A DNA stretch of 64,000 nucleotides from Eledone cirrhosa (Eukaryota): positions 23,188,001 through 23,252,000 of the forward strand of contig OZ024758.1 in assembly GCA_964016885.1 (NCBI GenBank), read 5' to 3'. Both the position numbers and the translations under genes were made by a program. The notes under the pieces are model-generated. The model was not told the DNA's origin. It did no database searches and saw only the letters and a program-made list of their open reading frames with translations. How positions within the stretch are numbered: position 1 is the first letter of the stretch; every line of letters begins with the position of its first letter. Shown here piece after piece: positions 7,701-40,700 of the stretch.

Positions 7701-10700
7701 TATTTTTCATTCTCAAAATAGAGTTTTGACATTTTGTTGATTTTTCAGCATAAATTTGTTTACTTCAAATTTTCTTTATTTTTTCTGGCTTTTTATTTTA
7801 CAGAACAATTTCTTCAAACCAACTTCACAGATATTCGAACACTTATGTCTCTGGCATATAACATGTCCGAAACAACAGTAGCAGTGTTAATAAACAATAC
7901 TAATACAAATCCAGTGAGTATTTCTTTGATTTCATCATCATCAGCATACGTCTGCTTTTTGCTGTTTGCAAGGGTGGGACAGGTCTTATTCAGCACAGCA
8001 TCTCTCCACTTGTCACGGTCCTTCATCATCTCCTTCGTGAGCTTCAGCAATCTGAGATCTGCTCTCACCACCTCTGCCCATGTTTTTTGTGGTCTTCCTC
8101 TACTGCGTCTTCCTTCTACTAGCATTTCTTGGCACTTCCTTACCCAGCGGTCATCAGTGCACATCACATGTCCATACCAACGCAGTCTTCTCTCCTGCAC
8201 ACCACAAGTTATCCCTCTTATACACAGTTTCTCTCTCAACTCATCTATGCTTAGTCATTCACACACATTGACATTGCACATCCAATGGAACATGCTTGTT
8301 TCATTTCTCTCCAGCCGTCGCATATCTTCCGCAGTTGCTGCCCATGTCTCACTACCATGCAGCATCGCACATCTCACACAGGCATCATATAACCAACCTT
8401 TCATTTGTAGGGAGAAACCCTTCTTTGTCAACAGAGGAAGCAGCTCCCTAAACTTCTTCCAGCCCATCCTTATTCTAGAGACTATGGCCTCGGAGCATAA
8501 TTTAAATCTAGTTGTGTTTATATAATCCCAGTTAAAGGCTACTTAAAAGGGAGTAAATATCTTTTGATTTAACTCTATACAATGAAGGTATATGGCCTTG
8601 TAGTTAAGGGTATTCAGCTCACAATCGTAAGGTCATAGGTTTGATTCCCAGCAGTGTGTTGTGTCCTTGAGCAAGACACTTTATTTCACGTTGCTCCAGT
8701 CTACTCAGCTAGCAAAATGAGTTGTACCTGTAATTTGAATGTCCAATCTTGTCACATTTTGTGTCATACTGAATCTCCCTAAGAACTAGGTTATGGGTAC
8801 GTGAATTTGTGGAATGCTCAGCCACTTGCATGTTAATTTCACAAGCAGGCTGTTCTATTGATCGGATCAACTAGAACATTGTAATCGACGGCATGCCAGT
8901 CATAGTCATACAATATAATATCATATTAATTATTCTAATGAAATTCTATTAAATCATAGTCTATGCCCTTAAGAATATCTATTGAAGATATTTATGAAGC
9001 TCAATTCGCCCACTTATTCCTGAGAGGGTCCTGTCAGAAGCAACTGTCTCCAACTGATCTGGCTGGATCCCCAAGCTTGACCAGCCAAGCTCATGGATGT
9101 TATTCAACCATCTTGCTCTGGGTCCCTTGCCAGTAGGTTTTGCCCATAACGTCTGTCCAGATTATATTGCTCTCTAAATACTAATGCTAAATATTTAATG
9201 CTTAAGTAATTCAAAACTAGAATCTTTAGTCCTCTACCTAGAATACTATGTATAAACGATGCCAATATATGGATCATATGAGCAAGATGAGGTTCCCAAA
9301 CCAGTCAAGTCTCAGACCATCACAATCTGTCCAATCTTTGCCAACATGGAAAATAGGCATGAAATGATGATGATCCAAATCTTTATTTTTTTTTATGAAT
9401 GATTGAATTTTTATTGTTTATATAATATATATATATATATATATATATATATATATAATATATATGTGGAGGCACATGGCTTAGTGGTTAGAGCATTGGC
9501 CTTGCAATCAAAAGGTTGTGAGTTCAATTCTCAGACCGGGTGATGTGTTGTTACCTTGAGCAAGTTTCCTTGAGCAAGACACTTTATTTCACATTGCTCC
9601 AGTTTACTCAGCTGCAGAAATGAGATAAGGACTGGGGTCCCTATCATTCCACTGCAAAGTGGTTATGGAGGCGCCACGGCAAAAAAGCACCCAGCACTCA
9701 CTGTAAATGAGGTTGGTGTTAGGAAGGGCATCCAGCTGTAGAAATCAAGCCAGAATCAGATCCCGTCCCACCCTTGCAAGCAGGGAAAAGTGGGCATAAA
9801 ATGAAATGAATGAATGAATATATATTGCAAGATATGTCAACATGAATGGACCTGTTATTTTTATCTAAAGACATTTTTTCCAATTCCATCCTACCCGTCC
9901 CCTCAATCTATTTTATTTCTCATTCTTTCTTCTGATTAAGGACTAGCGTCTGAAATGTTAAGACCCTTTTCCTGCTATATCAAGCGTTAACTTCCATATA
10001 CTGTACCGATTGTGTTGTTATTTCTGTTTACCTTTTACATACATATATATATAATCTGAAAAAAAGGAAAAGAATGTAGTGTTAAAAAATGTTTTGATTT
10101 AATGTTATAATATAATAATATAATATTATGAGCTGGTAGATCCACCAACTCATAATATTATAATACTATATTATAACATTAAATCAGAAAATTTTTTAAC
10201 ACTACAAGTGAAGTCATTCTTTTCCTTTTTTTCAAATATACCTAACTGTACCAAGAATCTCACACATTTTCCAATGTATATATATATATATATGTATGTA
10301 TGTATGTATGTATGTATGTATATATATGTATATATTTATATATTTCAACATCATTATTTATTTTTCTCTGTGATTCTTTTAGTTCTTGACGACTCTTATG
10401 AAAGACCTAAAAGTTTTTGAACATTGTAAAAATGGAACTTTTAATGAATTCTTAACCAAAACCCTATCAACATTTAATGCAGTACCAAAGGAAATACAGA
10501 ATATTATCAATAACACATTTTGCAGCAATATGAACTTTTATTCTACTCTTAGAAAATTGTATAACTCACAATATTTGGATCAACAGGTATTTTTTACAAA
10601 ACATTTTGTTAACCTCAATATGCATTTTGGGTAACTTAAAAAATCTACTTTGTGTCATTACACAAAGTAGAGTCGTGACACTTCTGTGTGTCACTGATAA

Positions 10701-37700: not shown

Positions 37701-40700
37701 GCCAAGCTGTATCAGCCTTTGCCTTTCCCTTGGACAACATTGGTGGCTTGGAGAGGGGGAGACTGGTATGCATGGGTGACTACTGGTCTTCCACAAAACA
37801 AACCTTACCCAGGCTTGTGCCTCGGAGGGAAACTTTCTATGTGCAAAACCATGGTCATGTGACCCAGTGGGGCCTTAGAATACTATATATAAAAACAAAG
37901 CTTTTCATGAATTTTTTCCTTTTTTTTATTTTTCTCATTTAAAGCATTCTTCATATCCTTGATGAATTTAAGAGTGTCCAAAAGGGTAACTTTTCACAAG
38001 AATTCATTGATGATATAGAAATTACAATAAAAGGCATTCTTGGTTTGGAAGCTATTGAGAAAATAATGGCACTTAGTGGTAACTATTTCTTTTTGTTAAA
38101 TTATTGTAATAAGACATAAAATATCCCTAAAAGTTGTTTCCTTCAAATTTTTTTAGGTGACATAATAATATATCTGAAACATATCTGCTATATTGTTATA
38201 CTTTGGGAGGGTCATGTTGCCAATAAAAATACACACACCTGCTGGTTTTCACTTTAATTTATTATAAATTTCCAGTTGTTTGGTTCGATAACCGGAAGGT
38301 TGTTTATATATTGTCAAAGGTCTTTGATAATATATAAACAACCTTTTGGTTATCGAACCAACCAGCCAGCAGGAAATTTATAATAAATTAAAGAGAAAAC
38401 CAGCAGCTGCGTGTGTTTTTATTGGCAGCATGACCCTCCCAAAGTATAACAATATCTGTTTCAACACACAATTTCAGATAAGAAATCTCACAAAACAAAT
38501 TCAAAAACGAAATATTATGCTTGCCCCCAATAAATGTATTTTGTGTACAAGTCTACCAAATAATATTTCCTTTTTCTTCTTTTTCGTCTTCTTTGTCTTT
38601 GTCGCCCACTTATTTCTGGGAGAGTCGTGGAGGAAGAATCCTCAAGTTCTCTCTCTCCAGTGGATCCTGTCAGAAGCAATTGTTTCCAAATAATCTGGCT
38701 GGATCCCCAAGCGAGACCAGCCAAGTTCATGGATTTTATCCTACTGTCTTGCTCGGAGTCTGCCCCTGAGTCTCCTGTCGGCTGGTTTTGCCCATAAAAT
38801 CTGTCCAGCAATTCTTTCCTGAGGCATTCTAACCTCATGTCTGTAGTATCAGAGCTGCGATCTCTCAATTCAGAGTAGTAGTAGCAGCTCTACCTGGAGT
38901 GACTCTCTGATCTCTGAACTACGCATTCTATCAAGTAACATTACTCCAAAGTTACTAATTCCACTGTCAAATACTTTTATTTCAATTTTCAATTTTTTTT
39001 TTTTTTTCTTATTAATAAACAATTCAATAATATTAAAAATAATACTTAATATTTGCAGCTGTATTCCGAGACTTCTTGAAAACACCAGATAGCGTACGAC
39101 TCTATATGATGAATTATTTAAACATACCTTTTGAAATCTCTGATGCTCTGATTAATTCCACAGTCTCTCTGGCACAGGTTAGTTGTCCTTTAAGCTAGAA
39201 TTATTGGACAGGATTTTCAGTTTTTGATTATTCATTTTTTAACCGTTTAGCATTCACATTACTCTGTTATATTATTGTATTTTTGTGATAAAGCATTTAT
39301 CTTACATAATTTTCTCCCATAATATCGAATCTATGAGATTTTGATGTTATTTATTTTGAGAACAATACCTTAACATCAGTATGAGGGGCTGGTTATAGCC
39401 AGTTTGAACAGATAGAGGTGAATGAATTCTGGTCGGATACGGCTGGTTTAAATGTTAAAGGGTTAATCTTTAGTGAAGGGGCATGGCTTTGTGGTTAAGA
39501 TATTCAGCTCAGGTCATGAGTTTGATTCCTGGTGGTGCTTGTATCCTTGAGCAAGACACTTTATTTCACATTGCTCCAGTCCACTCAGCTGGCAAAAAGG
39601 AATTGTACCTGTAATTTGAATGGCCATGCTGAATCTCCCTGAGAACTACATTAAGGATACACGTGTCTGTGGAATGCTCTGCCACTTGCACATTAATTTC
39701 ACAAGCAGGCTGTTCAATTGATCGGATCAAAGGGAAACCCACCTTGTGGGTTTCCTTCTTCGGACAGGTTGCTGATGTTCTGATCTTGCAAATTATCCAG
39801 CCTTTATTTTGCCATTCCTCCCTTTGCCGTTTTTTTCTTTCTTTTCTTTCTTTTCTTTCTTTTCTTTCTTTTCTTTCTTTTCTTTCTTTTCTTTCTTTTC
39901 TTTCTTTTCTTTCTGTTCTTTCTTTTCTTCTATTTTTCTTTTTTTTTTCTTCTCTCTTCATATTTTCCTATTTTCCATTCTTTCTTCTCAATCTAAATTT
40001 TCTTTTCTTCTTTTTCTGTTAAACTGTATTTACATGATATATTCCATAGATAAATTATTTTATTGATAAATTAAGATAAAGTGAATAAAAAATCTTTGCA
40101 TTGATATAAACTAAAACTTCTGTTGATATCATTCTTATAGACTTAATTTACATATTTAATTGTACTTTTCTGTATTCAACTTCTTCCAGTTCATTCAACT
40201 TCGAAGCAGTGGTGTTAATGACCTTCTCTGCAAGAATCTCAGCCATATTATAACTTTGTCAAATAACACCAATGTAACATACAACGAAATTAGTCGTCAT
40301 TTATGTAACCAAGGCAGTAAAAAGATTGAAAATCTCATACAACGCATCATGGAACAACTAGATATTGGTGAATTTGTTAAACAGGTACTGCTAAATCATT
40401 TCTACAAATATAGAAAATATAATTATATTGAGTGTGATAGAAATTTAATTTCACTTCTAATATTTTCTCTACTAAGTTTAATTGTCCACCAAAAACAGAA
40501 AGAGTGGAGGTGTAGGACCTAGTTTTAAATGTGTTGGACCTATGATCATAATGTTGTGGGTTCAATTCCCGGACTGAGTTGTGTGTTTCAGATTGTTTCC
40601 ACCACCATACCACCCACCCCACACATCTTTTACTCCACCCCCACCACCCCCACTCCCTACCGCCACGTAGCTTATTAAATTTAAGTGTGTTGGACTTAGA

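Follow-up and report, generated by a model that had tools for sequence, protein, structure and literature searches.

We have analysed a stretch of 64,000 nucleotides from the genome of Eledone cirrhosa (assembly GCA_964016885.1, contig OZ024758.1, positions 23,188,001 to 23,252,000), which we call the window; its first letter is position 1 and negative positions lie upstream. The window contains the last part of the first extracellular domain (ECD1) of one ABCA transporter gene, whose start is found 153 kb upstream. In this gene ECD1 contains 26 tandem units, which follow a cassette of four exons. An initial annotation of the window, made from its letters alone, had proposed at least three copies of an extracellular subdomain. 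The tandem repeats of this outer segment are confirmed, and there are many more of them: three was an undercount, the unit has four exons and not two, and the copies which had been named are units 22, 25 and 26.

The exons were scanned in the window, in 300 kb upstream and in 100 kb downstream. The gene model was built by hand from genomic DNA alone and its exons were chosen partly by phase pattern. It starts with an ATG at position -153,361 (contig position 23034639), followed by an exon with the first transmembrane helix (TM1) and by the cysteine-rich start of ECD1, and it ends with the last exon of the window (w25). It has 108 exons, 5,935 aa and no stops. All splice ends are AG/GT, with the exception of one GC donor, which belongs to the B exon of unit 20 (exon at L001:3921-4048). 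TM1 (residues 21–47) is the sole hydrophobic helix, and ECD1 has over 5,890 aa; that of ABCA1, ABCA4 and ABCA7 has about 600 aa. The sizes of some exons (e.g. 140 and 117 nt) presumably match those of the human ABCA1 gene. Before TM1 there is a variant, with KH for KN, of the xLxxKN-type motif, which a passage of PMC3724490 gives as the N-terminal mark of ABCA full transporters.

From residue 96 to residue 5,572 the exon phases keep to a strict A-B-C-D cycle. There are 26 A exons (phase 2-1, median 140 nt), 26 B exons (1-0, 132 nt), 22 C exons (0-0, 198 nt), which carry two cysteines, and 25 D exons (0-2, 215 nt). Units 3, 21, 23 and 24 have no C exon and unit 26 has no D exon. A unit has about 225 aa, and the median spacing of units is 225 aa over 314 intervals. 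The window has 25 exons (w1–w25) which code for 1,252 aa of ECD1 without any transmembrane helix; this independent count agrees with the initial annotation. It holds units 21 (in part) to 26. The A exon of unit 21 lies 0.5 kb outside, on the upstream side; units 1–20, TM1 and the ATG are found up to 153 kb upstream. The features of the window are the following:

4608..4705, + strand: w1, B exon of degenerate unit 21; 50–56% identity to the Octopus orthologs, in a collinear place
5974..6155, + strand: w2, the D exon (0-2) in unit 21; this unit has no C exon
6928..6989, + strand: w3, A exon (2-1) of unit 22, short and less certain than any other exon; collinear match in O. bimaculoides only (40%)
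7804..7913, + strand: w4, B exon (1-0) of unit 22, 110 nt
10383..10586, + strand: w5, C exon (0-0, two cysteines) of unit 22, 204 nt
12576..12745, + strand: w6, D exon of unit 22
14260–14345, 15959–16083, 16612–16733, + strand: w7–w9, degenerate unit 23, A-B-D without C; its profile score is not significant
23540–23670, 25991–26085, 28319–28500, + strand: w10–w12, degenerate unit 24, A-B-D, with four cysteines
30310–30437, 32152–32276, 34264–34455, 35110–35315, + strand: w13–w16, complete unit 25
37945–38078, 39059–39177, 40190–40384, + strand: w17–w19, unit 26, A-B-C, at the place of the single copy of ABCA1/7-type proteins
42329–42503, 45154–45318, + strand: w20–w21, return from the array into the ECD1 base
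46699..46838, + strand: w22, conserved exon of the ECD1 base; matches human ABCA1 residues 354–396 (E 3e-6)
51585–51701, 54531–54780, + strand: w23–w24, ECD1 base; the orthologous stretch matches the fold of ABCA4/1/7
56140..56383, + strand: w25, exon of the base which encodes a loop rich in His/Asp and a furin-type RxKR site; no later exon precedes the gap
58541..58740, no strand: assembly gap, 200 N

Since the exons had been picked partly by phase pattern, homology and collinearity were tested independently. In leave-one-out profiles 20 of the 22 units with a C exon outscore every one of the 200 shuffles, and the two which fail are units 2 and 22. A profile built from 270 internal units of non-octopod species puts 24 of the 26 units ahead of all 100 shuffles, unit 22 included, and units 21 and 23 fail; these 270 units were originally collected with an octopus-seeded profile, so that the test is independent in its sequences, not in their selection. 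The six exons of the three copies first described are found with AG/GT ends, sizes of 110/204, 125/192 and 119/195 nt and phases 1-0 then 0-0. Two of these copies, w14+w15 and w18+w19, are related (z 8.0; none of 1000 shuffles reaches their score). The third, w4+w5, does not stand out in pairwise comparison (198 and 78 of 1000 shuffles) and is marginal in the leave-one-out profile (17 of 200), but the 270-unit profile gives unit 22 a score of 20.5 bits, which none of the 100 shuffles reaches. It is real and diverged, in agreement with its description as the most diverged copy.

The two cysteines are invariant in all 18 C exons aligned. They are also the top coevolving pair (z 9), which is the only usable signal of this kind; the remaining high-ranking pairs appear to be noise from the alignment. 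The units have an amphipathic helical periodicity (0.339, against 0.265 ± 0.003 when shuffled), and in the model we have found no excess at 170 degrees, the periodicity typical of strands. The model also has 118 N-glycan sequons, 2.2 per 100 aa. Ten exons searched in Pfam gave no match above the cut-off, and no repeat family appears in the precomputed domains of the giant relatives.

As the cassette has phase 2 at both of its ends, a tandem duplication of the whole cassette preserves the reading frame. Such a duplication has been caught in progress in this genome. A very recent array, which repeats in tandem about every 3,073 bp, is found at positions -33,909 to -24,151 (contig 23154091–23163849). 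It spans units 14–17, with copies which are 99.4–99.6% identical, introns included. Units 15 and 16 are identical across 687 coding bases; two exon-identical copies could be over-assembled, and of the 26 copies no more than two or three could be due to inflation by the assembly. Near-identical recent units are also found in Argonauta, O. vulgaris and Ptychodera. A tree of the units resolves little, with the exception of units 13–17; between units 13 and 14 the ratio of nonsynonymous to synonymous divergence (dN/dS) is about 0.5 (0.33/0.68). The phase-cycling cassettes and the recent array bear out the early suggestion that the ectodomain was lengthened by tandem duplication.

The closest annotated relatives of the gene are proteins of Octopus and Argonauta. 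When the exons are mapped singly, the order of nearly all of them is conserved in O. vulgaris (7,118 aa) and in O. sinensis (6,779 aa, XP_029639515.1). A few weak exons deviate, as do units 13–17, which were copied recently and map to shared places. Both orthologs are single chains from TM1 to the second nucleotide-binding domain (NBD2), with both Walker A motifs, and the collinear Octopus orthologs also contain TM2–6, NBD1, the second extracellular domain (ECD2) and the second transmembrane domain (TMD2). The upstream exons are collinear with these single chains from TM1 onward and thus belong to one gene, as the initial annotation had supposed.

The unit recurs in molluscs, a brachiopod, a nemertean, an annelid, a priapulid, chelicerates, echinoderms and a hemichordate. 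A profile of the C exon gave 28 matches at E 0.001 among 1.84 billion representatives, many of them with multiple stretches. A search with the horseshoe-crab core in proteins of 3,016–9,597 aa gave 143 matches among 1,013 scored candidates. A single-exon homolog search, limited to proteins of 147–2,000 aa, gave no match. Units were counted with an iterated, invertebrate-only profile of the B and C exons at 12 bits or more; it finds 21 units in our model of 26, so that the counts are lower bounds. We have found at least 27 units in Ptychodera (partial protein), 23 in Lineus, 22 in Liolophura, 20 in Lymnaea, 19 in Aplysia, 18 in Lingula, 16 in Asterias, 15 in Priapulus, 14 in Owenia (partial) and 13 in horseshoe crab, at least 4–7 in ticks and at least 3–6 in insect Ldd. 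Lingula and Sinanodonta have two array-bearing paralogs each; in Lingula they count 18 and 6 units.

None of four ABCA3-type controls has units. On the other hand fish ABCA1/7-type proteins, which were held out, have exactly one unit in 119 of 119 cases (median 32 bits, reversed maximum 1.1). When the profile is restricted to internal units, the median is still 18 bits, with at least 10 bits in 108 of the 119 and a reversed maximum of 2.8. At the level of sequence these matches show homology between the unit and the one distal segment in the ECD1 of ABCA1/7-type proteins, as had been proposed from the pattern of residues. The gene shares with human ABCA1, ABCA4 and ABCA7 (5XJY, 7E7O, 8EE6) the layout of TM1 and ECD1 and a large ECD1 with an ABCA1-type base, recognised both by sequence (w22) and by fold search, which supports the initial assignment to the ABCA family. 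It differs from them by its 26 units, compared with a single distal segment in all the fish proteins. An octopus-only profile of the C exon, when compared with PDB sequences, did not match ABCA1 and its three rows are due to chance.

The initial annotation had also considered a count of modules in molluscs, where arrays are indeed found, and in vertebrate ABCA12 and ABCA13, which have at most one clear copy. Most ABCA13 have one copy in the last position, about 850 residues ahead of Walker A (at least 12 bits in 9 of 14; HHalign 95%); a possible first unit is weak (HHalign 19%, reversed control 1%). ABCA12 has only weak traces at the last-unit position. No further clear units and no self-BLAST repeats are found in vertebrate ABCA12/13, and as judged by these profiles their long ECD1s are not detectably built from such units. 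ABCA12 is annotated at 4,500–7,500 aa in amphibians and some fish, up to 7,516 aa in Xenopus tropicalis, with a long ECD1 without units or self-repeats. Insect Ldd (lipid droplet defective), which from passages of two papers we take to be CG34120, has about five clear units and two weak ones in profile-profile comparison, all invisible to self-BLAST. With about 4,050 aa, it has fewer and more diverged units than the gene studied here.

A FastTree phylogeny of 37 cores of transmembrane and nucleotide-binding domains, in which the O. sinensis ortholog stands in for our gene, places it with the protostome giants and Ldd, the echinoderm giants and ABCA12+13 (support 99). This clade stands apart from the fish ABCA1/7 and ABCA3 types. 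The placement agrees with a passage of PMC3724490; in 10.1101/2021.03.03.433580 CG34120 is placed only with the wider ABCA1/2/4/7/12/13 group. ABCA12 and ABCA13 share with our gene, besides the clade, a very long ECD1. According to the title of a cited reference human ABCA13 has a 4.8-kb exon, in contrast with the four-exon cassettes found here.

Each unit is predicted to consist of a disulfide-pinned helical subdomain with short strands (B+C) and a helical bundle (D+A). An AlphaFold2 model of five internal cephalopod units (P0008, 20 rows) has a mean local confidence (pLDDT) of 53.8 and a global score (pTM) of 0.30; its first core reaches pLDDT 70–80 and the linkers are low-confidence. A second model, of O. 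bimaculoides units 25–26 and the base (22 rows), has mean pLDDT 65.5 and pTM 0.33. In it the B+C cores of the two units have an identical predicted string of helices and short strands (pLDDT about 75–85). The base matches the fold of ABCA4/1/7 (Z 11.5, root mean square deviation 4.6 Å over 186 residues to 7e7o). The superposition of modules on the ECD1 of ABCA1 and ABCA4, which had been suggested, did not succeed: fold searches align the base and not the unit. The lid is poorly resolved in solved structures, according to passages of PMC7932691 and PMC8501128. For the five-unit model Foldseek found no match at E 0.001, what the model did match were generic helical hairpins (Z up to 7.4), and the ESM Atlas gave no usable match for P0008 250–720. 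The D+A stretch matches generic three-helix bundles (Z up to 8.2), which suggests a bundle and indicates no relative.

The gene may well encode an ATP-driven lipid exporter of the ABCA12/ABCA13/Ldd lineage, in which the 26 copies would together make up a large, tethered body that holds lipid; we give this reading an even chance. Since the units map to the distal segment, are amphipathic and are heavily glycosylated, we favour, again no more than evenly, a body of many chambers fed by the pump over the other possibilities discussed below. Passages of several papers describe the background. The extracellular domain of ABCA proteins has a base, a tunnel and a hollow, flexible lid (PMC7932691), and its distal part corresponds to ABCA4 residues 101–300 (PMC8501128). 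Lipid is proposed to enter via a gateway and annulus (PMC9381790), the ABCA2 tunnel holds queued cholesterol (10.64898/2026.08.25.746927), ABCA tunnels are about 60 Å high and ABCA13 is termed the largest ABC transporter (PMC13161189). By analogy with the structures of ABCA1, ABCA4 and ABCA2, the conserved base would pull lipid from the membrane, the hollow units would receive and store it, and they would pass it on to an acceptor or barrier layer. Unit 1 follows an N-terminal base segment and unit 26 re-enters the base, therefore the array must form a loop of some kind; it would fold as a loop, ring or coil, not as a straight stack. With 26 copies the protein would be expected to hold or relay much more lipid than with a single one. 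For insect Ldd passages of 10.1101/2021.03.03.433580 and PMC11900885 report a role in lipid transfer from neurons to glia: glial lipid droplets in the fly require neuronal CG34120/Ldd.

Several observations weigh against a lipid-holding body. Lipid binding and a cavity in the units are predicted only, both AlphaFold models leave the packing between units unsettled, and the fold searches recognised only the base. Four units have no cysteine exon and the copy number is labile. Internal units diverge fast, with mostly 30–70% identity to the Octopus orthologs; the values are 57–86% for units 25–26 and 61–89% for the base exons w20–w24. The tree was obtained with FastTree only and is without ABCA1, ABCA2 and ABCA4 proper, and the TM2–NBD2 half of the gene was not found in this assembly.

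The fast divergence of internal units would be expected if transport is left to the end units and the copies between them serve as a glycosylated spacer or as a scaffold for binding (for sorting, matrix or pathogen contact), with a length drifting via unequal crossing-over. We consider this rather unlikely. The array has recently expanded, independently, in this genome and in Argonauta, O. vulgaris and Ptychodera; this and the density of sequons are in its favour, as is mouse ABCA13, whose localisation to vesicles requires an N-terminal region described in passages of PMC7948424 as having no conserved domains. However the internal units of many phyla retain both cysteines and the pattern of hydrophobic residues which marks the ABCA1/7 segment, and the dN/dS of units 13 and 14 speaks against it as well.

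The initial annotation had imagined stacked modules as a longer lipid conduit. The modules are indeed in tandem, but an end-to-end stack is topologically unlikely, as both ends of the array join the base. A single continuous hydrophobic conduit from the pump to a distant acceptor (membrane, cuticle or matrix), of bridge type but helical, appears to us slightly less probable still than a spacer. The regular spacing, the homology of the unit to the hollow upper tunnel and lid region (passages of PMC8501128 and PMC7932691) and the retention of long arrays in many phyla speak for it. Nevertheless a straight stack would need an out-and-back path, the degenerate units 21, 23 and 24 near the membrane-proximal end would have to pass lipid, and the models are at their least confident in the linkers which connect the unit cores. 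The bridge-like lipid transfer proteins VPS13/ATG2, with RBG repeats, resemble this idea in that tandem modules lengthen a path for lipid. These are cytosolic beta-sheet grooves without ATPase, whereas our unit is extracellular and is predicted to be mostly helical, with short strands only, and disulfide-bonded; the lack of strand-type periodicity also differs from an RBG-type groove. A belt like that of exchangeable apolipoproteins would be marked by lipid-binding amphipathic helices in 11/22-residue repeats; of these marks the units have so far shown amphipathic helices.

That the giant gene is an artefact, either several genes run together or repeats falsely expanded, is very improbable: hand-picked exons, the identity of units 15 and 16, a missing 3' half and a model from genomic DNA alone could point to it, but annotations of three Octopus species and Argonauta are independently collinear, and two Logan proteins, P0037 (5,484 aa on 16,890 nt, TM1 to C-terminus, 13 units) and P0009 (6,516 aa on 20,548 nt, 20 units), fill 95–97% of their own contigs and are therefore probably spliced transcripts.

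We tentatively suggest that the bilaterian ancestor of ABCA12, ABCA13 and Ldd might have had many tandem ABCA1-like tunnel/lid units. They would form an ATP-fed extracellular lipid conduit or reservoir of up to 27 chambers, tunable by duplication of the four-exon cassette, with furin-type processing in molluscs. The 'domain-less' N-terminal region of 3,000 residues in human ABCA13 would then be an eroded descendant.

The furin-type site in the base loop was found in all 27 loops located in 29 mollusc proteins, in 4 of 6 other spiralians and priapulid, in 6 of 18 non-insect arthropods and in neither of two echinoderms. Hymenopteran Ldd has it in 2 of 6 cases, other insect Ldd in 0 of 20, ABCA12 in one of the two loops located (of 8 proteins), ABCA13 in 0 of 14 and fish ABCA1/7 in 0 of 113 loops located. 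Cleavage at this site is putative. In w25 a His/Asp-rich insertion of about 35 residues precedes RxKR; the Octopus orthologs have the site without the insertion. A second site, RKKR, is found in unit 3 (residue 637), and a third one is created at an exon junction (4572), with a counterpart in O. bimaculoides.

The gene family and many of its proteins are already in databases, mostly as 'uncharacterized'. A full-text literature search, with most subscription papers and supplements outside its reach, found no description of the repeat. Its definition, without Pfam match, explains many 'uncharacterized' invertebrate proteins of 5,000–7,400 aa, several of them longer than human ABCA13, whose long N-terminal region is described in passages of PMC7948424 without known domains. 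It is unsettled whether the ABCA ectodomain serves as a conduit, a store or a docking site, and here one ECD1 unit varies naturally from 1 to 27 copies. This variation supplies clean boundaries for constructs, and a single soluble unit could be expressed; it corresponds to the region of ABCA4 worst resolved by cryo-EM. Drosophila ldd, in which units could be deleted one at a time, has a published neuronal phenotype.

No ortholog-level match to the TM2–NBD2 half was found in the assembly with exon and motif scans of 100 kb downstream, two Pfam searches (one of them, ABC_tran, scored 19 of 142 candidates) and one search with the ortholog protein; the best match is 46%, on a different contig. If this half resembles that of O. 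sinensis, the full protein would have about 7,500 aa. Unrelated genes follow the gap after w25. Judging by their motifs, they are probably an ECI2-like gene (acyl-CoA-binding and isomerase) on the minus strand, with its last exon near 64.3 kb, an EEPD1-like gene at +123.7 kb and a patatin/iPLA2-like gene on the minus strand at +140 to 153 kb. Two similar stretches, one in the window at 61944–62081 and one inside the ECI2-like gene at 74119–74283, are possibly a repeat or a duplicated exon.

The introns contain satellites. At positions 538–3992 there is a 63-bp tandem repeat with about 55 copies (98% match), which is open for more than 1,100 codons on both strands; it is a satellite outside the gene model. 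Other intronic satellites are found at 17420–23380, 24830–25760, 41262–41922, 44324–44941 and 45513–46586, with periods of 48/237, 73/145, 61, 131 and 48 bp.

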